A DNA stretch of 39,569 nucleotides from Candidatus Nanohaloarchaea archaeon (GCA_042218325.1 JBDGRE010000030.1:1-39569); one strand, 5' to 3'; positions 1 through 30,661 are shown, counted from the first letter of the stretch. Made by a program: numbers and translations. Notes: generated from the letters alone by a model not told the origin.

Positions 1-305
1 AGCTGGGTTTAGATCGGCGTGAGCCAGATCGGTTGCTATCTGCCGGGAGTGTTTATGCGGTCTGAGAGGAAAGTCCGGACAGTACGAAAGGAACCCTGGA
101 CTGAGGCCTCTGGTCTATCGGTCATCCGAGAGGGTGGCGCCGAGTAGCTACGCCTCACAGGCCTAAAAGCTGAAAGCATCTAAGCTTGAAGGCCTCCTCA
201 AACAAGAAACCGCATCCACTCTCGTACAAGACGAGTCGATAGAGCGGCGGTGTAAGCACCAAGGCAACGAGGTGTTCAGCCGACCGCTACTAACCGTGGG
301 TTTCA
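1..305 (+). rRNA. rrl: 23S rRNA, 3' end (partial; 3' boundary approximate)
   Basis: GCTGGGTTTAGA..CGTGAG peptidyl-transferase/H93 region at 2-30; sarcin-ricin loop AGTACGAAAGGAAC at 81-94; conserved GCTGAAAGCATCTAAG (169-184) and terminal CTACTAAC. Confidence 0.97.
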
Positions 306-461
306 CAGCTTTCCAACAGACGGCACCAACTTGAGCTTTAACATCTCGGGTCCACTCGCAAGAGTCGACCCGTTGAGAAGACCTCTGGTCTTCGACGAGC
401 AGCGTGCCCTCAGTGGATCACACAACGCGGCCGGACCTGCTTGCTATACGCTACACTTTCT

Positions 462-1145: not shown

Positions 1146-1240
1146 CTAAACAAAACTAAACACCTCCACGCCTCAGCCGAACCCTCTTAGACGCTTTCTG
1201 AACGCCTTTGAACAGTCTTTCACGCGTTCGGGATATAAGG
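1146..1240 (+). promoter_or_regulatory. promoter with helically phased YYNAAC-like direct repeats and TATA box
   Basis: Hexamers at 1146, 1156, 1177, 1187, 1198, 1208, 1218; TATAAGG at 1234; same layout as 11879-11973. Confidence 0.75.
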
Positions 1241-1273
1241 CCCGGCGCGTATCCTGTGGCTGGTGAATCGACC

Positions 1274-4343: not shown

Positions 4344-6437
4344 CTAGAGGTAGGAGTGTATGGTTTTCCTGCTGGTTTTCTTCAGCTCCCTTCTCACGTC
4401 TTCACGGTCCATGCCGAGCGGGGAGAGCACGCTCTCCGCCGCCCTGACGAGCTGCGTCCTGTAGAACCCGGTGTCGTATCTTGCGGTGTTTTCGAAGGCG
4501 AGCCTCACTCGGGCTCTCGGCGGCGCGTTGTCGTTCCTGACCACGTACCTGACGCGCTGGCCCGGCTTTATCTCTATGCCGTGCTGCCTGGCGCGCTTCA
4601 TCGCCGCGACCGTCCTGTTGGAGACCTGGTAGTCCTCCAGCGCCTTCGAGGCCTTCTTCTCCACCACGAGCCGGTCCGGGTCGACTTCCCCCGACTCCAG
4701 CCTGTCAACCTTCTCACGCAGCACATCCAAGACGTCCTCCTCGCTCATCTCCCGGTCGAGAGCCTCTATCATCTCCATCTGGGAGTCCTTCACGAAGCCC
4801 GGGCTTGAGCTCTGCTCCACCTCTATCCCTGCGGTCTTGAAACCTCCTGACTTCTTCTTGCCAAAATACCGGTTGAGCGTCGCGATGTCCGCATCCGAGG
4901 ATGAACGGGGAACGAAGGCGACCCATTCGAACTCGTGCTCGGGCTCCAGCTCTATGCCTATCTCTTGGGTTATATGCTCGCAAACCTTCTCAAAGTTTTC
5001 CGCATCCCGCTTCTTTTGGACCCAGATGGAGTCAATTATGCCGTGCGCGATGCTGTATCCGGCGTCCTCGAACATCTCCTTCGTTTCAACCATTATCTCT
5101 CGGTCGAACGCTTGGATGGCCTGGTGGCACTCTATCGCGCCGTAGCTGGCGTGGCAGTGGCCCATATAGCCGAAGCACGAGACCAGCAGCCACTTGATCG
5201 CGTCGACGCTGCCCTGCAGGTCCCTCCTCTCTTTCTCGTCCAGTTCCTCCCCGGCGAGTCTCTTCTTCATCCGCTGCCTGTCCTCGACCAGGGGTTCAAG
5301 GACGCGCGGGATAAAACCCTCCTCGTCGCATATCGAGTAGTCGAGCTCCGGCACCCTGTCGTTGTCGCAGCAGCCGCAGTTTACCGTCTCCGGGCTTATG
5401 TTCTTCTTGACCATTATGTTCGGGAAAAGCGAGGCGAAGTCGGCCTCGTAGACGTTCTCGTGGATGGAAGGCTCCGGGTTGAAGATGAAGCCGCCCCTGT
5501 CCGCGCGGTGCATCGTTGATGCCTTCTTCGGCTGCTCGCCGCTCCAGTTCTTCCACGGGGTAAGCGTTTTCTCCTCCAGGTATGCGCGCCGGACCTCGAT
5601 GCTGGTCAAAAGGCGGCCGATGCTGCCCCAGGCAAGCTCCTGCATCGGGCGGTAGCTTCTCTCGACGAGGTCCCAGAAGCCTTCCAGCGTCGCCTCACCT
5701 ATCAGGAAGCTGTTCGACCTGTCGATGACGACGCGGCCGGGGACGTTGTAGCGGGAGGCGGAGTGGACTGTCTTCCCGTAGCTATGGACCGTGTTCTCGC
5801 CCGCGACCTGCTCGAAGCTTCCCGCCCGGCCGAGCGAGCCAAGCCCCTGCTCGTTCATCCTTGTCTCCAGCAGCTCGAGGACCTGGCCGCGGTTGACCAT
5901 CAGGAGGTCCGGGTCCCTCCGCTCAAAGACGCGGTGGAACTTTTCGACCGCCTCACCCTCGGAGCCTTCCATCTCTTCACCGTCGACCTTCAGGCCCGAG
6001 AGCTCGCCAGACGCGATATACTTCCTGTGGAGCGTTATATCCATCCTGTCGAGTTCGAACTCGGGGACCGGGCAGGTCTCGCGCTGTAGGCAGAACCTGA
6101 ACTGCGGGCTGAAGCCGACGTTGTAGAACCTGAACTCGCTCCTGCCGAAGCTCTTCTTCAGCCTGTTGACAGCAGACCTCAGCGCGTCCTCCGAAAAGGT
6201 GTCGACCCTGAGGACCTTCTTCTCCGGCTTCGAGAGCGTCGGCTTCCAGGTCTCGAAGCAGGTCGAATCGACTCCATCCAGGCGGCTGAGCCACGGTCTT
6301 CCTCTATGCAGTGATGTCCTGTCGCCCTCGATGTAGAAACGCGGCCGGTAGCCCGGGTGCCTCTCGGCCTCGACCCTGTTCCTGGTCTTCGTCCAGGTGA
6401 CCGCGTCACCGTCGACGAAGTCAATCTTGAATACCAT
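4344..6437 (-). CDS. polB2: archaeal family B DNA polymerase, PolB2 group
   Basis: Motif A DFASLFP, motif B KWLLVSCFGY, degenerate motif C HGIIDS (vs YGDTDS), degenerate exonuclease region. Confidence 0.92.
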   Translation of the reverse strand: MVFKIDFVDGDAVTWTKTRNRVEAERHPGYRPRFYIEGDRTSLHRGRPWLSRLDGVDSTCFETWKPTLSKPEKKVLRVDTFSEDALRSAVNRLKKSFGRSEFRFYNVGFSPQFRFCLQRETCPVPEFELDRMDITLHRKYIASGELSGLKVDGEEMEGSEGEAVEKFHRVFERRDPDLLMVNRGQVLELLETRMNEQGLGSLGRAGSFEQVAGENTVHSYGKTVHSASRYNVPGRVVIDRSNSFLIGEATLEGFWDLVERSYRPMQELAWGSIGRLLTSIEVRRAYLEEKTLTPWKNWSGEQPKKASTMHRADRGGFIFNPEPSIHENVYEADFASLFPNIMVKKNISPETVNCGCCDNDRVPELDYSICDEEGFIPRVLEPLVEDRQRMKKRLAGEELDEKERRDLQGSVDAIKWLLVSCFGYMGHCHASYGAIECHQAIQAFDREIMVETKEMFEDAGYSIAHGIIDSIWVQKKRDAENFEKVCEHITQEIGIELEPEHEFEWVAFVPRSSSDADIATLNRYFGKKKSGGFKTAGIEVEQSSSPGFVKDSQMEMIEALDREMSEEDVLDVLREKVDRLESGEVDPDRLVVEKKASKALEDYQVSNRTVAAMKRARQHGIEIKPGQRVRYVVRNDNAPPRARVRLAFENTARYDTGFYRTQLVRAAESVLSPLGMDREDVRRELKKTSRKTIHSYL

Positions 6438-6708
6438 CCTCGAGCTCTTGGATGCGTTTCTCCAGCTCCGTGATTTTCTCTGCGTTCTCCGAACTCTCCT
6501 TCTGGAGGCCGAGAAGCATCGAGATTATCGCGGGTATACCCGGGCTGGACGAGTTCATGTAGGAGGCGGCGTGGGCGTAGCTGTGGGCTTTCTCCCAGAG
6601 ACCGTCAAGATGTTCCTGGTTGGTATCCCGCAGCGCCTTCCGGAAAGGTCTGAAGCTCTCGATGAAGCTGTCCAGGTGGTTCCGGTAGGTTGAGTTCGTC
6701 CGTCCCAT
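6421..6708 (-). CDS. small helical PolB2-associated protein (arCOG07300-like)
   Basis: MGRTNSTYR...FRKALR N-terminus; overlaps polB2 start. Confidence 0.85.
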   Translation of the reverse strand: MGRTNSTYRNHLDSFIESFRPFRKALRDTNQEHLDGLWEKAHSYAHAASYMNSSSPGIPAIISMLLGLQKESSENAEKITELEKRIQELEDGIQD

Positions 6709-10501: not shown

Positions 10502-10560
10502 AATAGTTTGAACCGGGCACCTGCTTCTTAAGCATCGCTCCAGCATTCGTGGATACAGCC

Positions 10561-11094
10561 ATGAGACGACTACTGATAGCATTCGCTGTCGCCGCGTTCG
10601 TGGCGGCGGGAGCTGCACAGCCTTCGGGTGCCGGGCCTAACATGGCCGGTGGTCCTGACTCTGCCCGACAGGGTCAGGTGACTACCATGGGCAACCAGTC
10701 CGGGAACCAGACAGGCAACGAGACCCGCGGAAACGTTTCCCGTGGTCCCGGCCGTAGCGCGCAGTTTGATGCTAGGCTTATGACCGCTATCAACACGGTT
10801 GACGCGCTGACAAAAATCGCTCCGAACGACGACGTTGAGCAGCGACTCGAGAGAGCTCTGGAGATCCTGCGCAACGTGAAGGAGGACACTGATACGGCCA
10901 GCCTCGGACCTGATAACGAGACAAGTGATGAAGACACCGGAGAAAGAGGGCCGCCCGCTGACAGAGGTCCTGGACAGCAGGGGCCTCCTGAAGACGCAGG
11001 TTCTTCCGGCCAGCAGGGACCACAGAACCGTGGACGCCAGGGCGGCGGACCACCTGGATTCGTCCGGCGCATGCTCGGCGGCCTGTTCGGCTAG
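10561..11094 (+). CDS. secreted Gly/Pro/Gln-rich protein with C-terminal GPPGFV...LFG tail
   Basis: Signal peptide MRRLLIAFAVAAFVAAGAAQP; GPP/GPQ repeats. Confidence 0.82.
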   Translation: MRRLLIAFAVAAFVAAGAAQPSGAGPNMAGGPDSARQGQVTTMGNQSGNQTGNETRGNVSRGPGRSAQFDARLMTAINTVDALTKIAPNDDVEQRLERALEILRNVKEDTDTASLGPDNETSDEDTGERGPPADRGPGQQGPPEDAGSSGQQGPQNRGRQGGGPPGFVRRMLGGLFG

Positions 11095-11120
11095 AACCAT
11101 TACCTTTCCTCTCTTTTTTT

Positions 11121-11836
11121 CTATAGGAAGCTTCGCACAGCATTCCGCATACCGGTAGCATCCCTCTTGACGAAAGATATAATCAGCGCCATAGGATATA
11201 CCAAGAGTCTCTCGACCAGAATTATCTCCCGGTAGGCATCCTCAAGACCCTGCCTGAAATCTCGTCTTTCCTCGGATGGTAGAGCGAGAATGTGGGCGTA
11301 AAGGTTTGCGATACCGAAGCTCTTCTCCCTTTTTGAGGCGCTTTGAGAACCGTACTCGTGGTCGACAGTGTATACCTCCTCGCCCGACACGTCAGGAAGT
11401 TATATAGACTGTTGTCCAGCAGGCATATCTGGCTGTTGTGCAGATTCTTCAGGAACTCACCTACTAGTTCTCCTGCCTTTCGAGGGTTTCCATCGCCCTC
11501 CATGCACTCCCGAATTGCCTGCCTTTCTACCTCTTCAAGTTCGAGCGCCACTTCACCATCGTGGAGAACCTCTGGTACCTTGAAACCGTGTGAAGCCAGT
11601 GACTGCTTTAGCTCTCTATCCCTTTCTTTCCTGGTGCGCCAGTCAATGAACTCTCTCCTGCCCAGCAAGGTTCCTAAAGGGTTGAATATGGCTGCATTGA
11701 ACGGTCTGCGAGAGAAGTATTTGATGATAGTACCTTCCCCGGTATGGTAGACATCGTTTGTGACCGCCCAATCTACAGATTCCGCACCTTCAAACTTTTC
11801 CTGAAGATAATCCCAAGGTTCCGGATGTCAGAACAT
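11121..11836 (-). pseudogene. Bud32/Kdo-like protein-kinase-fold pseudogene
   Basis: Fragments in different frames: MF*HPEPW..NDVYHTG / IIKYF..KVPEVL..LHNSQICLLDNSLYNFL / VYTVDHEYG; one stop and two frameshifts. Confidence 0.65.
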
Positions 11837-11878
11837 GGTGAAAGTAGCGCAGGGATCAGATAAAATACAACCGAGGTA

Positions 11879-11973
11879 TTAAACGGAACTGAACGAGTTC
11901 TTCCGAGAGTTAAACGCTATTGAACAAGAATTCAACCGCTTTGAACGTTCTTTCACGGATACGCCATATAAGG
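11879..11973 (+). promoter_or_regulatory. promoter with helically phased YTNAAC-like direct repeats and TATA box
   Basis: Hexamers at 11879, 11889, 11910, 11920, 11931, 11941, 11951; TATAAGG at 11967; ATG 12001. Confidence 0.78.
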
Positions 11974-12000
11974 GTCGTTTCTCTATCTCGGGGTAAAACG

Positions 12001-12888
12001 ATGAAATCGACACACGCGACGACGGCATTCGCAGCGGCGCTATTGTTCGCAGGATTTATTTCACCTGCAGCAGCGCAACCCACGAACGCACAGGCGCAGG
12101 TAGATGCGCAGGCCTCCGCACAGGCCGAAAGTAACAGTTTTGGACAGATAATGAGCCAGCTCCAGTCCCTCCAGGAGCGGCTGACAATTATAGAGAACAG
12201 GCTCTCCAGCCTCGAAGCACAGGTAAACGCCCAGGGCGAGGCAGAGGCTGAAGCCTCGCAGAACGGGCAGAGAGGCCCTCCAGAGCACGCCGGCCCCGAG
12301 AACCGCGGTAAGCCTGAAGACGCCCGGGGAGCGAACGGCGCAGAGGTCAACCACTCCGTAACGGTCGAGGACGGCAAGAAGACTATCGGGCACGAGGTCA
12401 CGAAGAACGGCGACACCCTCGTCAGCTTCGTGAAAGAGATCTTCGTCGGACCAAAGGCTTCCGCAAACGCAGAGGCAGAGAGCGACTCCGACAGCCAGGT
12501 CACCGGCGACGAGAGCGAGGAAGGGCTCGACCTCGAGTTCACGTCCAACGTTTCACAGGGCGAGAACGCCACCATCAACGTCACGGAAAACAGCGAGGCG
12601 GTCGCCAACGCCACAGTCACAGTCAACGGAGAATTAGTCGGCCAGACAGATGCCAGCGGGACAGCCACTTTCACGGTCCCCAACGAAGAGAAGGTGAAAG
12701 TCAAGGTCGAGAAGGGCGACCACACCGCCGAGCTCGAGGTAGAGTTCGAGTCAGAAGCAGAGACCGGCAGCAGTGAAGCAAACGAGACCGGGGCAGAGAC
12801 AGAGTCCAGCGCCTCGGCAGAGGCGAACAGTTCAAACTCCGGAGCAGAGGCCGAAGCGGAGCTTTCCGCAGAGGCAAGCCTCCAGTAG
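12001..12888 (+). CDS. secreted/surface protein (coiled coil, Ig-like beta domain, acidic Ala/Ser/Glu tail)
   Basis: Signal peptide ending AAAQP; VANATVTVNGELVGQTDASG beta-sandwich pattern; several NxS/T sequons. Confidence 0.85.
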   Translation: MKSTHATTAFAAALLFAGFISPAAAQPTNAQAQVDAQASAQAESNSFGQIMSQLQSLQERLTIIENRLSSLEAQVNAQGEAEAEASQNGQRGPPEHAGPENRGKPEDARGANGAEVNHSVTVEDGKKTIGHEVTKNGDTLVSFVKEIFVGPKASANAEAESDSDSQVTGDESEEGLDLEFTSNVSQGENATINVTENSEAVANATVTVNGELVGQTDASGTATFTVPNEEKVKVKVEKGDHTAELEVEFESEAETGSSEANETGAETESSASAEANSSNSGAEAEAELSAEASLQ

Positions 12889-12897
12889 GTGACCTAG

Positions 12898-13103
12898 ATG
12901 GAGGAAGTCGAGTTCCGGTGTACTAACTGCGGCAGGACCGTCGAGAGAGATATCCTTCCCACCAAGCATGCCATACTTGAACCTTGCCGGATATCAACCG
13001 GACGGCCGCCTGCTGCAGCAAACCCGATTACGAGGACGATGAGGGGTTCCGCCGCTCAAGGCAGGAGGTCTCCTTCCGGGACTTCATACCCGGGAGAGCC
13101 TGA
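12898..13103 (+). pseudogene. small zinc-finger protein, apparently frameshifted
   Basis: MEEVEFRCTNCG; after about 12985 another frame gives PDINRTAACCSKPDYEDDEGF..GRA* (TGA 13101-13103), supplying the second Cys pair. Confidence 0.5.
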
Positions 13104-13171
13104 AACCCTCCTCTCCGTTCCCCCTCCTTGAACGAGTTTAAAACGATAAGATGGACAAAAGGATGATAGAT

Positions 13172-13981
13172 ATGACCAAACTACACGCCATAATCGCGAT
13201 AACAGCGCTGCTGTCAGGAACCGCAGCGGCCCAGCCGGCCGATGTTCCGGCTGCGGGCATGACGCCCGGCGACCTGTTCTACGGGCTGGAGAGAGCCTCC
13301 GAGGCCCTGGAGCTCGCGGTGGCCTCCGCACCGGTTATCGGCAGTGATGAACTTGCGGCGAAAGTAAGGGCGAACCACGCCGCGGAGAGGCTGTCCGAGG
13401 CCCGGAAACTCGCGGAGAAGAACAAAACAGAGAAGGTCGAGCAGCTGATGGATCAGTACAGCAGGGGCATGAACCGGTCGGTCCAGGCCGCGAAGAGGTC
13501 CGGGAAGCCCGAGTTCGTCTCACGGCTCAAGAACGTCTCCAGCAACCAGGTAAAGGTGCTTGAACAGGTCAAACAGCAGGTTCCTGGACCCGCGAAGAAG
13601 GGTATCGAGAACGCCATCGAGAACAGCCGGAAGAACCAGGAAGAACTCGAGCTACCCGAACAGGCCCGGAAAAGGCCCGGAACCGAGAAGGGCAACAGCG
13701 ATGAAAGCCAGGGGAGAGGTGAGGTCAATATCTCCGTTGGAGACAAACCCTCGACCGGAAACCCTGGAAAGGGAAGACACGAGCCCGGCGAGCAGCCTGG
13801 AAATCCTCCAGAGCCGGGGAAGCCGGACGAAAGCGGGGCGACCAAGGGCTCCACGGGAACCGGGCAGGTCCCTGACGAGGTCAACAACTCGGCTTCAGCC
13901 GCCAGTAACGCCAGCCCTGGACAGGACGCGCAGCAAACCCCCAGGATAGCGGAAAACGCAAGCTTCTCCGGGCTGCAGTAG
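13172..13981 (+). CDS. secreted DUF5667-like protein with Pro/Gly-rich tail
   Basis: Signal peptide ending AAAQP; AGMTPGDLFYGLERASE...AAERLSEA motif. Confidence 0.8.
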   Translation: MTKLHAIIAITALLSGTAAAQPADVPAAGMTPGDLFYGLERASEALELAVASAPVIGSDELAAKVRANHAAERLSEARKLAEKNKTEKVEQLMDQYSRGMNRSVQAAKRSGKPEFVSRLKNVSSNQVKVLEQVKQQVPGPAKKGIENAIENSRKNQEELELPEQARKRPGTEKGNSDESQGRGEVNISVGDKPSTGNPGKGRHEPGEQPGNPPEPGKPDESGATKGSTGTGQVPDEVNNSASAASNASPGQDAQQTPRIAENASFSGLQ

Positions 13982-14038
13982 GACTGTTGCAGCCCCCTGA
14001 TACGCTCTTTTTTATTTTTACAGCAGGAAAGAGCCTCT

Positions 14039-14410
14039 ATGGCAGTCCCGTTTCCCGAGGCACAGCTCGAAGCACTCATCTACATGGCCCTGGGAGCCCT
14101 GCTATCTCTTACTATCGTGCTCGGGGTGTACGCCCAGAGGCTGAAGAAGCGGCTGGAAGGCACGGACGAGGAACCCGGGATCAGAATCGACCGGATGGGG
14201 CTGTCTCTACGCGCGGAGGAAGTACTGGAAACGGTAATGGAAGAACCGATGCTGCAGAGTGAACTCCCGAGCGAGCTCAAGGTATCGAAGGCGACCATCA
14301 GCAACGCTGTCTCGGAGCTTTTCGAGCGGAACCTTGTGAGGAAGAAAAAGAAGGCCAACACTTATCTCATCGAGCCGCGGATGGACAAGATAGAAGAGCA
14401 GGCCCGGTAG
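14039..14410 (+). CDS. membrane-anchored winged-HTH transcriptional regulator (COG2512-like)
   Basis: N-terminal TM helix; LQSELPSELKVSKATISNAVSELFERNLVRKKK..NTYLI wHTH. Confidence 0.85.
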   Translation: MAVPFPEAQLEALIYMALGALLSLTIVLGVYAQRLKKRLEGTDEEPGIRIDRMGLSLRAEEVLETVMEEPMLQSELPSELKVSKATISNAVSELFERNLVRKKKKANTYLIEPRMDKIEEQAR

Positions 14411-14446
14411 GCGAGCTGATAAAAGATTTGCGGTCCATGCTATCCT

Positions 14447-14929
14447 GCTGGAGGCGGAGAGACCGCCACCGCTGGCCGAAGGTCTTACGACCTTCTTTAT
14501 CGGCTTCCAATAGCCGAGAAAAGCCGAGTGAGGAAAGTCCCGACACCACGACGGGCAACTTCGCGTTGCCGGTCGTAGAGAAGCTCCCAGCGAGCTTCGT
14601 AAAGTGCGACAGCCGTAAGGGCTGTGACCGGGAGGTTCAAGAAGCGCTCCGTAACCTGTTTAATACCAGGGTAGGACGTTTCAACGGGCAGCAGAAACGA
14701 CACGTCCCCGGATAACGGGATGAGGGCCAGTATATCACGGTAACGGTGTCATGACCGGCGCCGTGTTGAAATGCCTGACATCTCCGGGGGAGCGATGAAA
14801 CGGGCCCAGCGCAGGGTGCAAGCCGAGAAGGTGCGTAGTCAAATGCTGGTCACCGTCGTTCCTCTGGAACGGCGTTGGAGAAGAGCTCCGCTCTTCGATA
14901 ACAGAATCGGGCTTACTCCCGCCTCCAGC
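14447..14929 (+). ncRNA. rnpB: RNase P RNA
   Basis: GAGGAAAGTCCCGA (14530) pairs with ACAGAATCGGGCTTA (14901) as P4; P1 GCTGGAGGCGGAG / CTCCCGCCTCCAGC; CAGAAA and TGAAAC conserved segments. Confidence 0.93.
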
Positions 14930-18297: not shown

Positions 18298-20241
18298 ATG
18301 TCCCTGCTCGGATCGGTGAAGGAGGCGTTCAGCAGCAACGAAGAGGACGAGAGAGACCTCACGTTCGAGACAGCCGGGGACATCGGGTTCACGCTGTCAG
18401 ATGACAAGGACGTGAAGATAACTACGAAGGTCGACAAGCTGGCGGACGTCGATGTCAAGTACCCTCTTATCAAGCCGTTCGCGTACGCGCACGTGAAGTG
18501 GGACGACGACCAGAAGGAGATAATCTACCATCTTGAAGAGCCGAACCTGGACGACAGCGAGCAAGAGATGCTGGACAAGATAAAGGACAACCTCTCCGAG
18601 AAGCTGGACGTGTCGCTGAGTTCGATGCAGGACCGCAAGAAGGTCATCAGCTTCCTTGAGGACAAGATAAACGAACTGCTGCTGGAGCTCGGCATCGAGA
18701 TGACAGAGAAGCAGCACGACAAGATAATGTACTACATATTCCGGGATTTCGTCGGCCTCGGGCGTATCGAACCTTTCATGCACGACCCTTACATAGAGGA
18801 CCTCGGCTGCGACGGCAACGGTATACCGATCTTCGCGGTCCACAGCGAGTTCGGTTCGCTGAAGAGTGACGTCGTGTTCGACGAGCCGGACAACCTGAAG
18901 AACCTGGTAGTAAAGCTGGCGGAGCGGTGCGGCAAGTACGTCTCGTACGCCAACCCGCTGCTCGACGGCTCACTGCCCGACGGTTCACGTGTCAACGCAT
19001 CGCTGACCGAGGACGTAACCTCGAAAGGCCCGACCTTCTCCATCAGGAAGTTCCGGGATACACCTTTCTCGGCGATCGACATGATGGACCTGGGGACCGC
19101 GAGCGCCGATATCATGGCGTACATGTGGATACTGATGCAGTACCAGCAGTCGATGCTGATAACCGGTGGAACAGCCACAGGAAAGACATCGTTCCTCAAC
19201 TCCTGCGTCTCGTTCATACCGCCAGAGGACAAGATCGTATCCATCGAGGATACCCGGGAGCTGCAGCTGCCGCACGAGAACTGGATCCCCTCCGTTACCC
19301 GTTCGATGTTCGGGACGCAGAGCACCAGCGACGTGGACATGAACCAGCTGCTCAAGGAGTCCTTCCGTGAGAACCCGGACTACGTCATCGTAGGAGAGGT
19401 CCGTGGTGAGGAAGCGAGCGTGCTTTTCCAGGGTATGGCCTCCGGCCACCCGTCGATAGGTACGATGCACGCATCCGGGCCGAACGATGTCGTCAAGAGG
19501 CTCGTGACGCCGCCGATATCCCTTTCCTCGGCTTTGGTCGAGTCGCTGGACGTCATCGTGTCGATGACACACGCGAAGGGTGTCGAGAAGTCGGCGAGAA
19601 GGGCGAAGGAGATACACGAGGTGCAGAAGGTGATGGGCGAGTCGAACTCGGCCAGGACCAACGTACCGTTCTCCTGGACAGCCCGGGACGACAGCTTCAG
19701 CGCCCGCGGCGAACCATACCTTTTCGACCAGATAAGCAACGACTACGGGGTCAGCAAGGAAAACCTGAGGCAGGAGCTGGAGGACCGCAAGAAGGTGCTC
19801 GAGTGGCTGCAGGACAAGGGCGTGAAGGAGTTCGACAAGGTCTCAAAGATAATCGCGGAGTACTACAAGGACAAGGAGGAGATAATGAAGATGGTCAACT
19901 CCGAGGAGGGCGAGTACGACCTCGACCAGGTGATAGAGTCCGAGCGCAAGATCGATATCTCGAGACCTCAGCAGCTCGACAACGCCATAACAGCCGAAAA
20001 ACGGCAGAAACAGGCGGAGCAGGGAAAAGATGAAGAGGAGCTTGAAACGGAGATAAGAGAGATAGACGGCAGCACCGGCCTCGACGAGAAGCTTCAATCC
20101 GAGGAGAACCCTGTCGAGGACCTGGAGAAGAAGCTGCGAGACGAGAGGAGGAAGGTAGAGAAGATAAGAGGTTCCGGACCTGACGAAAACCCGTTCGAGG
20201 ACTCCGATGTCGACGTGGAGTCGAACCCGTTCGAGGCCTGA
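18298..20241 (+). CDS. type IV pilus/archaellum-family secretion ATPase (PilB/FlaI-like)
   Basis: GGTATGKT Walker A, SIEDTREL Asp box, PDYVIVGEVRGEE, SGH..TMHA. Confidence 0.95.
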   Translation: MSLLGSVKEAFSSNEEDERDLTFETAGDIGFTLSDDKDVKITTKVDKLADVDVKYPLIKPFAYAHVKWDDDQKEIIYHLEEPNLDDSEQEMLDKIKDNLSEKLDVSLSSMQDRKKVISFLEDKINELLLELGIEMTEKQHDKIMYYIFRDFVGLGRIEPFMHDPYIEDLGCDGNGIPIFAVHSEFGSLKSDVVFDEPDNLKNLVVKLAERCGKYVSYANPLLDGSLPDGSRVNASLTEDVTSKGPTFSIRKFRDTPFSAIDMMDLGTASADIMAYMWILMQYQQSMLITGGTATGKTSFLNSCVSFIPPEDKIVSIEDTRELQLPHENWIPSVTRSMFGTQSTSDVDMNQLLKESFRENPDYVIVGEVRGEEASVLFQGMASGHPSIGTMHASGPNDVVKRLVTPPISLSSALVESLDVIVSMTHAKGVEKSARRAKEIHEVQKVMGESNSARTNVPFSWTARDDSFSARGEPYLFDQISNDYGVSKENLRQELEDRKKVLEWLQDKGVKEFDKVSKIIAEYYKDKEEIMKMVNSEEGEYDLDQVIESERKIDISRPQQLDNAITAEKRQKQAEQGKDEEELETEIREIDGSTGLDEKLQSEENPVEDLEKKLRDERRKVEKIRGSGPDENPFEDSDVDVESNPFEA

Positions 20242-20242
20242 G

Positions 20243-20881
20243 ATGGAACGAGTAAAATCAGGTGTGGAGAACTTCGACCGGCTCGTAGGAGGCGGTATAC
20301 CGGAACGGGAACTGGTGCTGGTCGAGGGCGAACCCGGCTGCGGCAAGTCCAACTTCGGGCTGGAGTTCCTGTACCGCGGGGCGCAGCGGGGCGACCACGG
20401 TCTTTACGTCTCCTTCCAGGACACCGAGCCCGAGGTCCTGAGGACGACCACCTTCGACTGGGAGTTCGACCAGATGGTCGAGGATAACAGGATAAACATA
20501 ACCAAGTTCGACCCCTACAGGTACGAACAGATAGCGGACATGCTCCGGTCCACCATCAAGGAGAACGATGCCAAACGTGTCGTACTGGACCCGATAACCG
20601 ACCTCGACCTGTACATCGACTCCAGGAAGGACCAGCGGAAGAACCTGCTGAAAGTCAAGAAAGAGCTGAGCCAGATGGGATGCACGACATTCATGGTCGC
20701 GGAAAGAGAGGAAGCTACCGAGCTCGAGGAGGAGATAGCTGACGGCATAGTGCAGCTGGAACTGGTGAGGGAGAAGGGAAACGTCGAGAGACACATGTAC
20801 GTGAAGAAGCTGAAGGGCTCGGACTACCACCACGGGGTCCACAACTACATCATCGACAACACAGGTATCAAGGTGCGCTAG
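20243..20881 (+). CDS. KaiC/RAD55-family ATPase (FlaH-like) in the pilus operon
   Basis: SGVENFDRLVGGGIP, GEPGCGKS, RVVLDPI, IADGIVQL, KKLKG. Confidence 0.9.
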   Translation: MERVKSGVENFDRLVGGGIPERELVLVEGEPGCGKSNFGLEFLYRGAQRGDHGLYVSFQDTEPEVLRTTTFDWEFDQMVEDNRINITKFDPYRYEQIADMLRSTIKENDAKRVVLDPITDLDLYIDSRKDQRKNLLKVKKELSQMGCTTFMVAEREEATELEEEIADGIVQLELVREKGNVERHMYVKKLKGSDYHHGVHNYIIDNTGIKVR

Positions 20882-20894
20882 CAGAGGTGGCACG

Positions 20895-21824
20895 ATGAGC
20901 TCCAACCCGTTCCGCACCACACTCCGGGAACGCCTGAACGGCGCTATGAAGACCAACAACCTGTCTGCGGCCGCGAACGCACTTTTCGGCCCCACAGTGG
21001 ATAAATACGGCGAGCACTTCGAGGACCTGAAGGAAGATCTCCAGATGGCGGACATGGACGTCCTTTACCGGACATACGTATCGAAGATGTTCCTGTACAC
21101 GTTCGGTGCGTTCTTCCTCGGCATGTTCACCGGCCTGGTCTATACAGCGACGAATCTCTCCTCGATCTCGATGGCCATGGCTGTCCGGCTTGTCATGGGG
21201 CTGCCTATGGCGCTGGCGGTCATGGTTTTCGGTTTCATGTATATCTACCCTTCGCAGAAGGCAAAGAGACGGAAAAACGATATAGAGGACAACCTTCCGT
21301 TCGCCCTGAACCACCTCAGCGCCATCGCCACCTCGGGGATCCCGCCCAGCTCGATGTTCCAGCTGCTCCAGGGTTTCGAGGAGTACGGCGCCATCTCGGA
21401 AGAGGCCGGCGAGATATCGAGACGGGTGAACGTGTTCGGCGAGGACCTCACCACCGCGTTAAGAGAGGTAGCGGACAACTCGCCGAGCGAGGACTGGAGC
21501 GAGGTGCTCTACGGTATGCTTTCGACCGTCGAAACCGGGGGCAACATGGAGGACTACATCAAGGAGAAGGCCGAGGAGGCGCTTTTCGACTTCAAGATGG
21601 AACGGGAGAAGGAGATCGAGCGGCTGAGCACCTACGCATCGTTCTACACCGCGATACTTATCGCCGCGCCGGTCTTTCTCGTGGTCATCCTCTCCGTCAT
21701 GAACCTGCTCGGGGGCCAGCTGATGGGCTTCGCCATCAGGGACCTTATGTGGATGGGTATCCACATCATAATACCCGTGATAAACACCCTGTTCATAATA
21801 TTCCTCGCGCTGAAGGTGGACTAG
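20895..21824 (+). CDS. type II secretion F family (TadC/FlaJ-like) membrane platform
   Basis: IEDNLPFALNHLSAIATSGIPP, YGAISEE, several TM helices. Confidence 0.93.
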   Translation: MSSNPFRTTLRERLNGAMKTNNLSAAANALFGPTVDKYGEHFEDLKEDLQMADMDVLYRTYVSKMFLYTFGAFFLGMFTGLVYTATNLSSISMAMAVRLVMGLPMALAVMVFGFMYIYPSQKAKRRKNDIEDNLPFALNHLSAIATSGIPPSSMFQLLQGFEEYGAISEEAGEISRRVNVFGEDLTTALREVADNSPSEDWSEVLYGMLSTVETGGNMEDYIKEKAEEALFDFKMEREKEIERLSTYASFYTAILIAAPVFLVVILSVMNLLGGQLMGFAIRDLMWMGIHIIIPVINTLFIIFLALKVD

Positions 21825-21825
21825 G

Positions 21826-23046
21826 ATGGACCTGAGTATCTCAAGGCGGGACCTGGAACTGAAGGCGAAGAACATCTGGAGGAAGCACCACCGCCTCATA
21901 ACGCTTATCGCAGGCGCAGCAGTCCTCGGGATGCTTATCGCGGCTCTTAACACCTGGAACTACGAGAACACCAAGCAGAAGTTCCAGCTCCAGGAACCTC
22001 AGGAGGTAGGCAACCAGCAGGATGCCCGTTTCCATTTCCAGCTACAGCGTCCGAGCGTACAGGCCGACACCACCCTCAGGCTTACAATCGAGAACCTGCA
22101 GCAGGATTCCAACGTTCAGGTTGCGGTGAACGGCCAGCAACTGCGCTCGATATCGCAGAGCGAGACGCTCGTCAAGATACCGTCCGACACGCTGCAGCAG
22201 AACAACACTGTGAGGGTCTACCAAGAGGGCATAAGTTTCAACACCCAGCGGCTTGTGGACGCAAGTGTAACCTCCTACACCAGCATACAGCAACTGCTGT
22301 TCGTCCTGCTCAACTTCGCCTCGATACTGCTGATATTCACCCCAGTCGCGTACGTCAAGTACGAGGACTTCCAGGAACGGAAGAAGGTCGAAGACGAGTT
22401 CCCCTCGTTCCTGAGGGACGTGGTCCAGGGAACCCGGGCAGGCATGTCCCTGCCGCAGGCAATACAGAATACGGAGTCCGGCAGCTACGGGCCGCTGAAC
22501 GACCATATCCAGAGCATGTCAGCGCAGATAGAATGGGGGATACCGTTCGACGAGGTACTGGAGAACTTCTCGGGCGATGTCAAGTCCCCTCTCGTAAAAC
22601 GCTCCGTAGACACGATTATCCAGGCCTATAGCTCCGGAGGCAACATACAGGATGTGCTCGAATCCGTCGGCGATAATATCCGGCAGATCAAGCAGCTGCA
22701 GGAGGAGCGGTCAAGCCAGCTTTACAGCGAGATGATAACAGGGTACATCGTATACTTCATCTTTATCGGTATACTGGTAGCGCTCACGACATTCCTGCTC
22801 CCGAACCTCGCCACTGCTTCGCAGTCGCTCGGCGGAGGCCTGAGTATACTTGGTGGAGGCGGAGGCGGAAGCCTCCAAGAGAACATCACCCTCTACAACC
22901 AGTGGTTCCAGAGACTAGTCTTCATCCAGGCGCTGTTCTCCGGGCTGATAATCGGCAAGCTTTCCGAGGGCGAGCTGAAGGCAGGTATAAAGCACTCCGC
23001 GATACTGTTTGCGGCAGGATATCTCGCAGTCACATTCTTCCTGTAG
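21826..23046 (+). CDS. type II secretion F family protein with N-terminal extracellular beta domain
   Basis: EDEFPSFLRDVVQGTRAGMSLPQA, QALFSGLIIGKLSEG; about 110-aa polar insert between the first two TM helices. Confidence 0.9.
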   Translation: MDLSISRRDLELKAKNIWRKHHRLITLIAGAAVLGMLIAALNTWNYENTKQKFQLQEPQEVGNQQDARFHFQLQRPSVQADTTLRLTIENLQQDSNVQVAVNGQQLRSISQSETLVKIPSDTLQQNNTVRVYQEGISFNTQRLVDASVTSYTSIQQLLFVLLNFASILLIFTPVAYVKYEDFQERKKVEDEFPSFLRDVVQGTRAGMSLPQAIQNTESGSYGPLNDHIQSMSAQIEWGIPFDEVLENFSGDVKSPLVKRSVDTIIQAYSSGGNIQDVLESVGDNIRQIKQLQEERSSQLYSEMITGYIVYFIFIGILVALTTFLLPNLATASQSLGGGLSILGGGGGGSLQENITLYNQWFQRLVFIQALFSGLIIGKLSEGELKAGIKHSAILFAAGYLAVTFFL

Positions 23047-25031: not shown

Positions 25032-25117
25032 TGGCCGAGCCCGGATTTGAACCGGGGACAACTGCATAGCTGGAGTATCCTTCAGTGCAGCGCTCTCCCA
25101 GGCTGAGCTACTCGGCC
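25032..25117 (-). tRNA. tRNA-Phe(GAA) with 12-nt intron (25068-25079)
   Basis: Reverse strand GGCCGAG TAGCTCAGCCTGGGAGAGC G CTGCA CT GAA G [GATACTCCAGCT] A TGCAG TTGT CCCCGG TTCAAAT CCGGG CTCGGCC A. Confidence 0.95.
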
Positions 25118-27934: not shown

Positions 27935-29011
27935 CTACAGCTTCTGCTGTTTCTCCTCTTTTATCCTGTCATCATCCGTAAAATCAGAGTACTCGACGAC
28001 GTAACTCTTGTCCTTTCTCCGGGCTTCTTCCACGCTCTTGAAAAGTATGCGTTTCTCCTGCTTCGTCATCACTGGGAAACCGTAGTTCTCGGCCTCGTAG
28101 TCCCAGTCTTTGCCTTCCTGCGTCTTATCCTCCACGAACTCTTCGTGGCGGTTTATGCGCGCCGTGTTGACCTCCCTTGTCTTCTGCTCCAGTCCTTCCA
28201 CCTGTTCCTCGAACTCGCGGCCGAACTCCTCCTCGAGCTCGAATCCTACAGAGTTCCGGCCGAGGACCATCGCGGCGAGGGAGGTCGTTCCTGTACCCCA
28301 GAAGGGATCGAGCACAGTGTCGCCGTAGACCGAGTACATGTTGATCAGCCTGTACGGTATCTCGAACGGGTAGGCCGCCGCCCTGTCACGTAACTCGCCG
28401 TTGCTCAGGTCCTGCAGTGTACCCCGGACGTCGGTCCATACATCCGAGAACCACTTGTTGCGCTCCTCCCAGAAATACGCGCTCTGGTACCTGTCCTGCG
28501 AGCCGGGCTCGAACCTTCTCTCACCTTCTTTCCTGAAGACGAGGATGTGTTCATGCTCCAGCGTCACGTAAGCGTTCGGCGGCAACATGCCCGAACCCAT
28601 GAACTTGCTGGCCTTGTTCGTCGGCTTCCTCCACAGGATACCGGGAAGCAGGTGGAAGCCGTTCCGGGTGAAGAAATCTATCACCTTGCTGTGGTTCGGG
28701 AAAAGCTGGAAGTCGCCATCCACCTTCCGGGTCGCATCGCCCACGTTAACACATACTACACCTCCCTCACAGGTGACACGGGCGACCTCCGACCACACTT
28801 TCTCCAGCTCGTCATGCATCATGTCGAAGGCCTCGTAGGCCTCTCCATCCTCTATAGCCCGGCCTATCTCGGAGTTGAGCGAGGTGAAAAGTTCGTCCCA
28901 CATCTCTATCATCGGGTACGGCGGAGAGGTCACCGTGAGCTCGACCGAACCATCCTCTATCTCCGACATGTCACGCGAATCAGCGAAGTGCACAGTGTGT
29001 TCCGTATTCAT
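27935..29011 (-). CDS. DNA N4/N6 amino-methyltransferase, beta class (probably m4C), orphan
   Basis: TSPPY motif IV precedes LDPFWGTGTT motif I; no adjacent endonuclease gene. Confidence 0.92.
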   Translation of the reverse strand: MNTEHTVHFADSRDMSEIEDGSVELTVTSPPYPMIEMWDELFTSLNSEIGRAIEDGEAYEAFDMMHDELEKVWSEVARVTCEGGVVCVNVGDATRKVDGDFQLFPNHSKVIDFFTRNGFHLLPGILWRKPTNKASKFMGSGMLPPNAYVTLEHEHILVFRKEGERRFEPGSQDRYQSAYFWEERNKWFSDVWTDVRGTLQDLSNGELRDRAAAYPFEIPYRLINMYSVYGDTVLDPFWGTGTTSLAAMVLGRNSVGFELEEEFGREFEEQVEGLEQKTREVNTARINRHEEFVEDKTQEGKDWDYEAENYGFPVMTKQEKRILFKSVEEARRKDKSYVVEYSDFTDDDRIKEEKQQKL

Positions 29012-29290
29012 CGTCCTTGGCTCCCGTACCACGACCCCCGGCAAAGTAGAGGGCCGCAGCCACAGTCATGAAAGATGTTACCCGGGAACATTTTTAGAAG
29101 TGCAGCGCCCAGGGCAGACTTAAGCTGGTTCATTAACCATCTCGGTCTTAGTGGACAAACTTGTTTTCTTCAGAAAATCTTAAATCCGATTCCCTGATTC
29201 CTTGATTTCTTTAAAAGATTGACTCACCGCTCTACCTCTGGTTCAAAGGTCTCTTAATACGATTTTACCTTAAATTTCCAGTCGAAACAG

Positions 29291-29486
29291 AGGGTTTCTT
29301 GAACTTATAAAGAAGCCCTGAACTCGAACTTGACCTTCTGTCACCCCCTGTAAAAATATGTAGAAAAACACATATTTCGGTTTCTTGACTCTATAAACCT
29401 TTCTAAATAATGCTTTTAGCCAGAGGGCTTCTTGTAACGCTTAGTTTTCAAAAATAATGGCTCAGAGGAAAGGAAACCCTTTATAA
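29291..29486 (+). promoter_or_regulatory. operator array AGGGYTTCYT and TATA box of the RHH operon
   Basis: Copies at 29291 (+), 29310 (-), 29424 (+), 29471 (-); the last abuts TTATAA at 29481. Confidence 0.6.
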
Positions 29487-29513
29487 GATTTTAACTACTA
29501 ACCTGTCACTACT

Positions 29514-29630
29514 ATGAGAAGAATGATTCATTTCAAGGCAGACAACATGGAAGAGCTACGCAAAATCTGTAGAGAAGCCGTAGAGGAAAAAGTTCAGGAA
29601 AAAGAAGGGGTCGAAAATGAAAGAAAATAA
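29514..29630 (+). CDS. 38-aa protein, RHH-like fragment (not in ORF track)
   Basis: MRRMIHFKADNMEELRKICREAVEEKVQEKEGVENERK; ATG about 30 nt after TATA; overlaps next gene. Confidence 0.5.
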   Translation: MRRMIHFKADNMEELRKICREAVEEKVQEKEGVENERK

Positions 29631-30305: not shown

Positions 30306-30448
30306 GTTGATAGAGATAACAGGGCTACAATATAAAGGGGAAAATCCTTCCTCAATTTTTTTCTTTCAAAACTATTTTATGGAAATACCTAAACCTGTTA
30401 GTTACATACTGACAAGGCATAAAAATACAGTTTCAGAAATTCTTAGGT

Positions 30449-30610: not shown

Positions 30611-30661
30611 AAAACCGGAAAAGGGTGTGACCAGCACCCCTTCCCTTCACAGACCGATACT

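Follow-up and report, generated by a model that had tools for sequence, protein, structure and literature searches.

Gene content of the locus

The stretch of DNA analysed (the window; 39,569 nt, from genome G000, a Candidatus Nanohaloarchaea archaeon) carries genes for secreted proteins, two phased repeat arrays and a gene for a membrane-anchored winged-helix (wHTH) protein. Genes are named here by their first coordinate, and the features are listed in Table 1.

Table 1. Features of the module in the window, with the evidence for each.
Feature	Position	Strand	Evidence or description
Second phased array, promoter of 1274	1147..1241	+	R1 model 66.6 bits, E=6e-20
Small secreted protein, 89 aa	1274..1543	+	Signal peptide, acidic low-complexity middle, conserved C-terminal GPPxFV...LFG
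Secreted protein, 177 aa	10561..11094	+	AAQP signal peptide, low-complexity regions, conserved helical core, C-terminal PGFV..MLGGLFG
Phased repeat array and core promoter of 12001	11879..11975	+	R1 model 74.6 bits, E=1.8e-22
Secreted protein, 295 aa	12001..12888	+	AAQP signal peptide, coiled-coil segment, Ig-like beta-sandwich, acidic tail
Small Cys-rich (CxxC...CC) zinc-ribbon-like gene	12898..13103	+	Split over two frames near 12978 in the window
Secreted DUF5667 protein	13172..13981	+	AAQP signal peptide, five-helix domain, disordered tail; alternative starts 13151 or 13163
Membrane-anchored winged-helix protein, 123 aa	14039..14410	+	Pfam, NCBIfam, homologue alignment, AlphaFold2, Foldseek

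The first-pass annotation had described a cluster of three secreted proteins with AAQP signal peptides (10561, 12001 and 13172) next to the wHTH gene. In a crude scan of the 1.07-Mb genome, 5 of 206 signal-peptide-like ATG starts (alternative starts included) contained AAQP and belonged to exactly these three genes, which are the only ones of this kind in the genome. The joining of a membrane-anchored wHTH protein, a DUF5667 protein and other secreted proteins in one module was also supported.

No Pfam or NCBIfam match was obtained for the 1274 protein, and its orthologues stand behind arrays in three other genomes (G001, G022, G055). An array in front of 10561 was not found within the window; where orthologues of 10561 occur in G064, G065 and metagenome loci L051 and L055, each immediately follows an array. 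The 12001 protein matched Fn3_arc slightly under the cut-off (27.6 bits, cut-off 28.9), its orthologues follow arrays in 10 other genomes and at metagenome loci L052 and L058, and its structural neighbours in the Atlas are archaeal surface proteins, which are taken as leads only because every score was below 0.9. For the zinc-ribbon-like gene, two tblastn segments in different frames were obtained (12898-13026 and 12981-13100), and the gene is intact as orthologues at L014, L015 and L022 and as paralogues on contig C32.

The DUF5667 domain (PF18915) of the 13172 protein scored 59.8 bits, above the cut-off of 27, and its helices at residues 37-160 were modelled by AlphaFold2 with pLDDT >90. Genes of this type adjoin the wHTH gene in 15 of the 18 wHTH-positive genomes of the family, and the family search found DUF5667 in 30/50 family genomes and in 0/14 control genomes. 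DUF5667 genes are also present in 12 of the 32 wHTH-negative family genomes and lie away from the wHTH gene in G001, G022, L053/L054 and L055, indicating that DUF5667 is not an obligatory partner of the wHTH protein.

Structure and conservation of the phased array

A sequence-only model of the array (R1), with training sequences from nine of the array-bearing genomes, was used to scan the window. The 12001 and 1274 promoters were both recovered (Table 1), in agreement with the earlier proposal that these genes have a phased promoter in common, and nothing else in the window scored above 5.2 bits. The shared array is ~95 bp long and contains six T(G/A)AAC units and a degenerate seventh, 10-11 bp apart with one empty slot, with a BRE/TATA-like ATATAAGG at the end. 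In front of 12001, the T(G/A/C)AAC-type units have their first bases at 11880, 11890, 11911, 11921, 11932 and 11942, with the degenerate unit at 11952 (spacings 10, 21, 10, 11, 10, 10), and are followed by a BRE-like GGATAC and by the TATA-like box at 11966-11973. The 1274 array, which aligns gaplessly with nine other arrays, begins with a distal pair TAAAC-N5-TAAAC, continues with proximal units and ends at the same box (1233-1240), 33 nt before the ATG. A GAAC-N2-4-CTTTCAC block was found at only two sites in the genome, namely these two arrays. TATAAGG is rare in the promoters of this genome (4/498 upstream regions, compared with 35 for TTTAAA). A weak array (C16:858-949, 21 bits) also precedes a truncated DUF5667 paralogue in the same genome.

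The weaker TTGAAC units that had been proposed before 10561 and 13172 did not hold up. The site at 13126-13145 scored 3.3 bits (E=3.4), and the spacing of the 13128 unit to its TATA-like TTTAAAA is unlike that of the conserved array; at 10508, no R1 match was returned with filters off and E up to 10. Both units are single hexamers at chance level, and it is more likely that 13172 is co-transcribed with 12001 or driven by its own TATA.

Ten arrays from nine genomes were aligned without gaps over 98 columns with a mean column identity of 73%, and the proteins encoded downstream are just 31-47% identical. The alignment stays gapless across genera, with a fixed register to the TATA-like box. Among 18 strong arrays, the conservation showed a periodicity peak at 10.25 bp that was reached by 4 of 2000 column permutations, and each of the 18 runs up to a TATA-like box, with the ATG of a gene for a signal-peptide protein following 25-45 nt further on. 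The array-headed genes belong to four families (12001-like, 1274-like, 10561-like and DUF5667), and 6/6 metagenome arrays precede genes of these same kinds. Weaker versions were observed at four loci before a DUF5667 gene heading a DUF5667-wHTH pair (E=1e-3, 5e-3, 0.035 and 0.038). In several array orthologues a proximal GTTTC-N2-GAAAC palindrome lies beside the TATA-like box and could be a repressor site. The array itself sits upstream of BRE/TATA, which is the position described for known archaeal activator sites such as the GvpE UAS (PMC2241852).

The membrane-anchored winged-helix protein

The 14039 protein is composed, from the N-terminus, of a 12-residue outside tail, a TM helix, a basic juxtamembrane stretch, a short acidic linker and a MarR/ArsR-type wHTH. 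In the AlphaFold2 model (mean pLDDT 88.9), residues 6-40 form a single long helix, residues 43-46 a low-confidence linker and residues 50-113 the winged helix (three helices plus a beta-hairpin), with just one short helix (115-122) after the wing. The top Foldseek matches of the model were MexR, HlyU, DNA-bound ST1710, AbfR2 and MarR (probability 1.00, E ~1e-3), and the modelled fold resembles these solved MarR/ArsR-type regulators, a family that also has a helical dimerisation module. AlphaFold2 and Foldseek agree with the earlier reading of this gene as a TM helix fused to a wHTH.

In Pfam and NCBIfam, no wHTH family matched above its curated cut-off. HVO_A0261_N (PF25213) was the best Pfam wHTH match (30.0 bits, cut-off 35), and the other matches were DUF7343 (PF24034; 23.5 bits, cut-off 27.6), MarR_2 (23.3 bits, cut-off 27), MarR (22.2 bits, cut-off 24.6) and Lrs14 (30.3 bits, cut-off 90). 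The 173 homologues, of about 125 aa, are annotated as Nanohaloarchaea or "uncharacterized membrane protein", and precomputed PF25213 matches are present in most of them. Among 57 homologues, almost no variation was seen in the recognition helix (S-K-A-T-x-S-N-A) or the wing, and conservation extends to the outside tail and to one side of the TM helix (F5, Y15, G19, Y31). Basic residues flanking a TM helix mark the cytoplasmic side (positive-inside rule); the charges of this protein are acidic before and basic after the helix, which places the wHTH inside the cell. Beyond the membrane there are only the 12 tail residues and no sensor domain was recognisable in the protein, so the "envelope sensing" suggested in the first-pass annotation could not be maintained, and a link of the module to envelope stress or host contact is speculation.

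Linkage and co-occurrence of the array and the wHTH gene

Three arrangements of the array and the wHTH gene were observed. The array precedes a string of genes on the same strand whose last member is the wHTH gene in eight genomes (G000, G001, G005, G017, G022, G061, G064, G065), begins 0-30 nt past the wHTH stop in six (G002, G007, G018, G050, G054, G057), and is divergent from the wHTH gene at a distance of 36-39 nt in two (G016, G044), indicating that the linkage survives rearrangement.

Strong arrays were found in 16/70 genomes of the phylum, all within one family, and in 0/20 genomes of the other four families. The wHTH gene accompanies the strong array in 15 of the 16, and in the sixteenth (G055) the contig ends before the expected wHTH position. 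Among the 50 genomes of the family, which are related and not independent samples, the wHTH gene is present in 18, the array in 17 and both in 16; in all three discordant genomes (G008, G009, G055) contigs end before the expected position of the missing partner. Neither the wHTH gene nor a strong array was found in the closed genomes G011, G015 and G020, where the array search gave nothing at E up to 1e-3 (the best match had E=6e-3 for G015 and E=7e-3 for G020). Outside the training set, the wHTH gene has an array no more than 2.2 kb away in 7/7 wHTH-positive genomes, six of them at E <=8.5e-10 and G044 at 1.5e-4. Among orthologue-level metagenome loci, 6/8 likewise carry an array within 2.2 kb of this gene (E <=1e-8), and the contigs of the remaining two, 1.1-1.2 kb long, stop within the upstream gene. 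Arrays physically unlinked to the wHTH gene were found only in the wHTH-positive G000, namely the 1274 array, 13 kb away, and the weak array on C16. The module is present or absent even within genera, and no other conserved DNA-binding gene was found in it. The phylogenetic co-occurrence of arrays and regulator, whose absence the first-pass annotation had named among the findings that would refute its proposal, was thus observed, and it is partly trivial because the two usually lie within 2 kb and are inherited, or missed by assembly, together.

Comparison with known systems

Like the 14039 protein, ToxR of the ToxR/ToxS system (Vibrio) and the CadC-type activators are single-pass membrane-anchored winged-helix proteins. 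The sites of ToxR lie upstream of the promoter and consist of direct repeats at intervals of about one helical turn (TNAAA-N5-TNAAT, -51 to -37 of ompU), and ToxS, encoded in the ToxR operon, is described as a co-activator acting outside the cytoplasm (PMC7496328); the present array has T(G/A)AAC-N5/6 units, and the regulator gene has a gene for a secreted DUF5667 protein as its neighbour. In contrast to ToxR and CadC, the DNA-binding domain is MarR/ArsR-like and not OmpR/PhoB-type, the topology is reversed (wHTH C-terminal, N-terminus outside), and 12 N-terminal residues stand in place of a periplasmic sensor domain; compared with ToxR, the array has 6-7 units over ~85 bp instead of 2-3, and the promoter machinery is archaeal BRE/TATA. 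Among the 13 Pfam families matching the protein at E up to 0.1, Trans_reg_C is absent, and with the C-terminal wHTH and no C-terminal periplasmic sensor domain, membership of the ToxR/CadC family was rejected. The earlier comparison with ToxR is apt for the direct-repeat mechanism but not as a family assignment: the system is an analogue of ToxR and not homologous to it.

The earlier statement that no mechanism had been described for such proteins needs correction, since transmembrane transcription regulators (TTRs) have been catalogued and found to be widespread in archaea (PMC10269533) and ArnR/ArnR1 of Sulfolobus, membrane-bound activators of surface-structure genes, were studied experimentally (PMC6396743). 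The survey of Demey et al. (2023) lists 1,384 TTRs from archaea, spread over 367 of the 404 archaeal species, a TTR being defined by a predicted DNA-binding domain and at least one TM region; the words MarR, DPANN and Nanohaloarchaeota are absent from the main text of that survey (PMC10269533). The 14039 protein combines a wHTH fold (50-113) and a TM helix (within 6-40) in one polypeptide and so falls under this definition. ArnR is reported to combine an N-terminal HTH with HAMP and sensor domains and a C-terminal pair of TM helices, and to bind inverted repeats TCGAC-N5-GTCGA (PMC6396743), whereas the 14039 protein is a 123-aa N-anchored minimal form paired with direct repeats; with the architecture reversed and minimal and the repeats direct, assignment to the ArnR/ArnR1 one-component systems was also rejected.

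In an exhaustive profile search, archaeal proteins of the form [N-terminal region]-TM-DUF7343 wHTH, also named "uncharacterized membrane protein", were aligned with the 14039 family across the TM helix, linker and wHTH (for example, over profile positions 5-116 for one relative of 165 aa and 11-119 for another of 466 aa). DUF7343 scored above its cut-off in 12 of 14 single-wHTH distant relatives scanned, two of them are named in their sources as Heimdallarchaeota and Thermoplasmatota regulators, and DUF5667 was present in 0/16 proteins scanned. The distant relatives carry 40-340 extra residues before the TM helix, whereas the nanohaloarchaeal family has almost none and is small, its full-length members forming 11 clusters at 50% identity (E <=1e-26, all 121-146 aa). 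To our knowledge, no function has been tested for any of these proteins. The COG2512-like label of the first-pass annotation is consistent with these relatives.

The GvpE UAS of haloarchaeal gas-vesicle promoters resembles the array in having direct repeats with a TGAAAC/TGAAC core immediately upstream of BRE, and GvpE activation is reported to strictly need the spacing between the repeats and to BRE (PMC2241852). The GvpE site has two 8-nt portions with a 12-nt period, in contrast to 6-7 units at 10-11 nt, and GvpE is soluble and not a winged-helix membrane protein, unlike the membrane-anchored 14039 protein.

Proposed mechanism and alternative explanations

The 14039 protein is probably a transmembrane transcription regulator specific to this lineage, which binds to the phased repeats and switches on genes for secreted proteins, its own operon included. 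It would be a minimal regulator with a short conserved tail outside, one TM helix as anchor and a MarR/ArsR-type winged helix hanging about 15 residues below the membrane. Several copies would bind the T(G/A)AAC(G) direct repeats head-to-tail, and since the repeats are one helical turn apart, all sites would be on one face of the DNA, which could lie against the membrane. With the array abutting the BRE/TATA of an atypical TATA (..TAAGG), the bound proteins may help to recruit TBP/TFB and thereby activate transcription. The predicted targets in this genome are 1274 and the 12001 gene string, which appears to run through the zinc-ribbon gene and DUF5667 into the regulator gene and would thus give positive autoregulation. 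A candidate for the regulator's partner on the outer side is the secreted DUF5667 protein encoded with it, in a role like that of ToxS towards ToxR.

MarR/ArsR-type domains usually bind palindromes as dimers and not long rows of direct repeats, which fits a reading in which the array does serve as an upstream activating sequence, but for another factor that is soluble, with the wHTH protein as a co-regulated envelope product or its wHTH used for protein contacts. Lying downstream of the array on the same strand in eight genomes, the wHTH gene could be a mere target, and the soluble haloarchaeal activator GvpE uses a similar direct-repeat site, TGAAACGG-n4-TGAACCAA, beside BRE (PMC2241852). However, the wHTH gene precedes the array in six genomes and would not be driven by it there, the module has no other conserved DNA-binding gene, and the nearly invariant recognition helix matches the invariant AAC cores. 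Such a factor acting in trans would also need the same patchy distribution, given the lack of strong arrays in the other families and of both elements in the closed genomes, and the explanation is considered unlikely.

It is quite unlikely that the wHTH protein binds the array as a repressor or membrane-sequestering silencer. Many MarR-family proteins repress, and binding at the last degenerate unit and the GTTTC-N2-GAAAC palindrome, directly against BRE/TATA, could block TFB/TBP; nevertheless, ~60 of the 85 bp of the array lie well upstream of BRE, where archaeal repressors rarely act, and a TATA-like box atypical for the genome fits a promoter needing help. The 10.25-bp period and the A-rich cores (AAAC/GAAC), as in phased bending sequences, would suit a promoter element that bends intrinsically or positions chromatin, is inherited together with the gene cluster and is read by no specific factor, but the conservation is base-specific (T, A, A, C, often G) and not merely A/T-rich, the register to TATA is fixed without gaps, and only 1-3 such promoters occur per genome, in wHTH-positive genomes only (apart from the truncated G055 contig), making this explanation highly improbable.

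An extension of regulation by the 14039 protein, in which the array-driven secreted products act from outside on the conserved 12-residue tail and TM helix, the regulator oligomerises at the membrane along a single side of the promoter DNA and more of the same genes are switched on in a self-contained positive-feedback circuit, is put forward only as an improbable variant. Its outside ligands might be the DUF5667 protein or peptides released from the conserved GPPxFV...LFG C-termini of the small proteins, and the circuit would read the cell's own surface or neighbourhood. If true, this would amount to a counterpart of ToxRS or of peptide autoinduction that is specific to DPANN archaea and possibly linked with host-cell contact.

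Biological significance

The module is probably a lineage-specific accessory regulatory module of one nanohaloarchaeal family. Gene regulation in DPANN archaea is little known and only a handful of archaeal activator sites have been defined; here, comparative data yield an unusually clean and directly testable pair, a 123-aa tethered winged helix and a rigidly spaced 6-7-unit array abutting BRE/TATA. This raises the question of how a factor that can reach only a few nanometres from the membrane assembles on ~85 bp of DNA and contacts TBP/TFB. The array targets are secreted proteins of obligate episymbionts, and because the module comes and goes within genera, it may mark strain-level differences in surface or host-interaction biology.

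Structure of the promoter array

The first-pass annotation had proposed a promoter element common to genes 12001 and 1274 (genes are named by their start in the window). This was confirmed with an array model, a sequence-only covariance model built on ten promoters, which recognised both promoters and gave 5.2 bits at most in the rest of the window (coordinates and scores are listed in the table below). The weaker TTGAAC units that had also been placed before 10561 and 13172 were attributed to chance, as only 3.3 bits (E = 3.4) were obtained at 13126-13145 and 10508 was unlisted.

Before 12001 the unit spacings are 10, 21, 10, 11, 10 and 10, the 21 indicating one empty slot. Ten arrays from nine genomes aligned without gaps over 98 columns with a mean column identity of 73%, the T, A, A and C being invariant in several units, whereas the proteins encoded downstream are only 31-47% identical. 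Column conservation across 18 strong arrays peaked at a period of 10.25 bp, a value matched in 4 of 2000 column permutations, which puts all units on the same face of the DNA. The TATA-like ..TAAGG stands out in this genome, with TATAAGG present in 4 of 498 upstream regions; the usual hexamers about 30 nt upstream of start codons are TTTAAA and TTTTAT. An exact-unit search of the genome (strict regular expression, three or more units) recovered no array but that of 12001; the others came to light only with the profile model. In addition, contig C16 carries a weak third array (21 bits, E = 2.8e-4), followed from ~953 by a DUF5667-like ORF that stops after 54 residues, and together they resemble a module copy that has decayed.

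Coordinates of features in the window (contig C24) and on other contigs of the same genome, G000
Feature	Position	Strand	Remarks
23S rRNA gene, 3' end	1-313		contig start; 273.9 bits; array-driven 1274 <1 kb away
Array before 1274	1147-1241		66.6 bits
Gene 1274	1274-1543
Gene 10561	10561-11094
Array before 12001	11879-11975		74.6 bits
Units T(G/A/C)AAC	starts 11880, 11890, 11911, 11921, 11932, 11942		degenerate unit at 11952
ATATAAGG	11966-11973		after the units and BRE-like GGA(A/T)AC; 27 nt upstream of 12001 ATG
Gene 12001	12001-12888
Short gap	12888-12898
Zinc-ribbon-like gene (CxxC...CC)	12898-13103		between 12001 and DUF5667; broken across two frames near 12978
Short gap	13981-14039
Pilus- or archaellum-like locus	18298-23043
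tRNA	25032-25117	minus	4 kb before low-G+C block
Border of low-G+C block	27938-29044
Low-G+C block	~29000-39569		39-47% vs about 57% elsewhere
Phage-integrase-family gene	33580-34662	minus	in low-G+C block
Weak array, C16	858-949
wHTH paralogue, C23	26238-26606		locus L021, 6739-7182
DUF5667 paralogue, L021	~6260-6560	minus	divergent from wHTH paralogue
Zinc-ribbon-like paralogues, C32	14677-14886; 12207-12422; 12477-12722		intact

Distribution and co-occurrence of array and regulator

Orthologues of the regulator 14039, a membrane-anchored winged helix-turn-helix (wHTH) protein, were found in 18 of the 50 genomes of the window's family and strong array sites in 17, both being present together in 16. 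No orthologue-level regulator match was obtained in other families (16 genomes searched), and strong array sites were absent from all 20 genomes of the phylum searched outside this family. Each of the three discordant genomes has a contig end at the module: a contig breaks off within the regulator gene, leaving a fragment (G008), a 3-kb contig begins within the 12001 orthologue (G009), or the contig ends within a 92%-identical 12001 orthologue, short of the expected regulator position (G055). The phylogenetic co-occurrence that the first-pass annotation had named as a check was thus borne out.

Since nine array-bearing genomes had trained the model, the test was restricted to the remaining genomes. 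An array lay within 2.2 kb of the gene in all seven untrained wHTH-positive genomes, six at E values of 9e-24 to 8.5e-10 and G044 at 1.5e-4. Among eight orthologue-level metagenome loci, six carried an array at E = 1e-8 or better (two of the six being apparent mutual duplicates), and the other two are contigs of 1.1-1.2 kb ending within the upstream 1274-like gene. In the closed single-contig genomes G011, G015 and G020, neither the wHTH gene nor an array was detected at E up to 1e-3, and a looser threshold gave very weak partial array matches only (G015, E = 6e-3; G020, E = 7e-3). The absence of both from these three genomes is genuine.

Co-inheritance and co-loss would be expected for any linked pair because the gene and the array are physically close. 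The co-occurrence counts, in which related genomes are not independent, prove a module rather than a binding event.

Gene order around the array

The order array, 12001-like gene, zinc-ribbon gene, DUF5667 gene and regulator was found in G000, G005, G017 and G061, with the zinc-ribbon gene seen in the first three, and G009 shares this gene order on a contig that stops short of the array position. A second order, DUF5667, regulator, array and 12001-like gene, is that of G002, G007, G018, G050, G054 and G057; here the array begins 0-30 nt past the regulator stop codon and heads the 12001-like gene, and four loci of this type have weak array versions ahead of DUF5667 (E = 1e-3 to 0.038). The array heads a 10561-like gene in G064, G065 and metagenome loci L051 and L055, heads a 1274-like gene in G001, G022, G055 and L053/L054, and lies between divergent DUF5667 and regulator genes in G016 and G044. 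A signal-peptide gene was immediately 3' of the array in 18/18 strong arrays and 6/6 metagenome arrays. No other conserved DNA-binding gene was found near the module. A T-rich stretch about 30 nt upstream of 14039 is a possible TATA for the regulator gene itself, or a possible terminator.

Regulator 14039

The 123-residue product was modelled (AlphaFold2, 57 homologues, mean pLDDT 88.9) as a helix (6-40), a floppy linker (43-46), a winged helix (50-113) and a short last helix. The positive-inside rule is a guide to the topology of membrane proteins, and the acidic residues before the hydrophobic stretch and R/K after it would accordingly place the 12-residue N-terminus outside and the wHTH inside. 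The top Foldseek matches were MexR, HlyU, ST1710, AbfR2 and MarR (probability 1.00, E about 1e-3), and every wHTH match in Pfam and NCBIfam was below cut-off. Orthologues (121-146 aa) share 37-66% identity with 14039. Across the family almost no variation is seen in the recognition helix and the wing, nor in the outside tail and several transmembrane (TM) positions, one of them an invariant glycine. When 1.84 billion representatives were searched exhaustively with a profile, only 11 full-length clusters were found at E = 1e-26 or better. The outer part of the regulator consists of only 12 conserved residues, and the envelope sensing proposed at first is unsupported.

A second membrane-wHTH paralogue (42% identical) is present on contig C23, divergently paired with a DUF5667 paralogue whose reading frame is interrupted by at least two frameshifts. 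Between the two genes only a degenerate array is present, undetected by the array model.

Secreted proteins and DUF5667

The N-termini ending in AAQP that had been noted as signal peptides in 10561, 12001 and 13172 are present and signal-peptide-like, each ORF starting with a basic residue and a hydrophobic stretch. In a crude genome-wide scan, five of 206 signal-peptide-like ATG starts carried AAQP, all belonging to these three genes with their alternative starts, and the motif was found again in orthologues. Gene 13172 encodes DUF5667 (59.8 bits), and gene 12001 a coiled-coil segment and an Ig-like domain (Fn3_arc, 27.6 bits, slightly below the cut-off of 28.9).

When 1274, 10561, 12001 and orthologues in L018, L019, L044, L047, L048 and L050-L055 were compared, 1274-like and 10561-like proteins were seen to end alike, in a conserved GPPxFV ... 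LFG followed directly by the stop, and both, like 12001, contain a short motif of the RGPPE(D/H) type. In G065 a 10561-like protein is fused to the Ig-like domain of 12001, indicating, with the shared motifs, that these families are mosaics of shared pieces. The frame split of the zinc-ribbon-like gene, which is unbroken in L014, L015 and L022, may mark a pseudogene or result from faulty assembly; its paralogues on C32 adjoin genes that by eye resemble rRNA-processing genes.

The DUF5667 gene adjoins the regulator gene in 15 of 18 wHTH-positive family genomes, and the secreted DUF5667 protein is a candidate partner of the regulator. DUF5667 genes also occur in 12 of 32 wHTH-negative family genomes (30/50 family genomes in total, 0/14 control genomes), and some loci have the regulator without DUF5667 beside it. 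Complex prediction for residues 22-172 of the DUF5667 protein, its DUF5667 domain, and the first 45 residues of the regulator gave a median score of 0.28 (mark, 0.32), which speaks neither for nor against a contact. DUF5667 was absent from all 16 distant, longer TM-wHTH proteins scanned from the exhaustive profile search, so no fusion ties it to the regulator; a word-based search, which is weak evidence, found no relatives of greater length. Against the PDB, the DUF5667 fold gave only uninformative matches, to designed helical-repeat proteins (E = 0.03 or worse). No published literature mentioning 'DUF5667' was found. A link of DUF5667 to bacterial anti-sigma factors was considered, gained no support and was dropped; the Atlas neighbours are stand-alone DUF5667 proteins of candidate bacterial phyla with scores of 0.84 or less (leads only). 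A second DUF5667 subfamily (ORFs of about 185-220 aa), unlinked to the regulator, was observed in many regulator-less genomes; examples of the subfamily are G001:C1:933733-934056, G005:C2:63770-64072 and G006:C13:21808-22131.

Genomic setting

The genome (1.07 Mb, 35 contigs, G+C about 56%) encodes acidic proteins in the window, and homologues of the studied genes are labelled 'Candidatus Nanohaloarchaea' or 'Nanosalina' in their sources, which identifies the organism as a nanohaloarchaeon (DPANN). Upstream of the module are photolyase, family-B polymerase, DJ-1/PfpI and OsmC genes; downstream are Sec61-beta, GNAT, an arginase-family enzyme and arginyl-tRNA synthetase, then a type-IV-pilus- or archaellum-like assembly locus with a PilB3-like T2SSE ATPase, a KaiC-like ATPase and two T2SSF membrane proteins, followed by small ORFs, possible pilins. 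No array was found in front of this locus. The low-G+C block, which also holds ORFs of 1320 aa and 726 aa without Pfam hits and has a DNA methylase gene at its edge, looks like an integrated element.

Proposed mechanism and relation to known systems

The promoter-proximal phased element is conserved, keeps a fixed register to the TATA-like box, adjoins a membrane-anchored wHTH gene and is present or absent jointly with it. The core of the first-pass annotation is real and stronger than could be known from the sequence alone. On the sequence evidence, the array is probably the target of regulator 14039, a well-supported assignment that we infer. Several regulator molecules would sit head-to-tail on the direct repeats, on the membrane-facing side of the DNA, and may aid the loading of TBP/TFB onto the weak TATA. 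Activation is favoured because the array lies upstream of the BRE, as does the GvpE site, TGAAACGG-n4-TGAACCAA, whose spacing to the BRE is described as critical (PMC2241852). The gaps between the genes are short, so one transcript may cover the regulator gene and its targets, and the circuit would then feed back positively. A search for RNA data over 11800-14500 gave no entry.

In its mode of working the module resembles ToxR/ToxS, for which direct repeats (TNAAA-N5-TNAAT) and an outside co-activator encoded in the ToxR operon are described (PMC7496328). Unlike the ToxR family, the regulator is without an OmpR-type domain and a sensor domain, and its topology is reversed. It fits the broad definition of transmembrane transcription regulators, counted in 367 of 404 archaeal species according to one survey (PMC10269533), but is distinct from ArnR and ArnR1, which have been studied in archaea (PMC6396743). 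Distant relatives in other archaea carry a TM helix and a DUF7343 wHTH behind an additional N-terminal stretch of 40-340 residues, and the nanohaloarchaeal regulator looks like a stripped-down member of this uncharacterised TM-DUF7343 wHTH class. Judging by titles and abstracts, no paper on the module in Nanohaloarchaeota/Nanohaloarchaea was found; the supplementary tables of the survey may list members of the regulator family. The kind of system, a membrane-tethered one-component regulator with upstream activating repeats, is already known. What is new is the regulator family, its minimal architecture and the helically phased array of 6-7 units.
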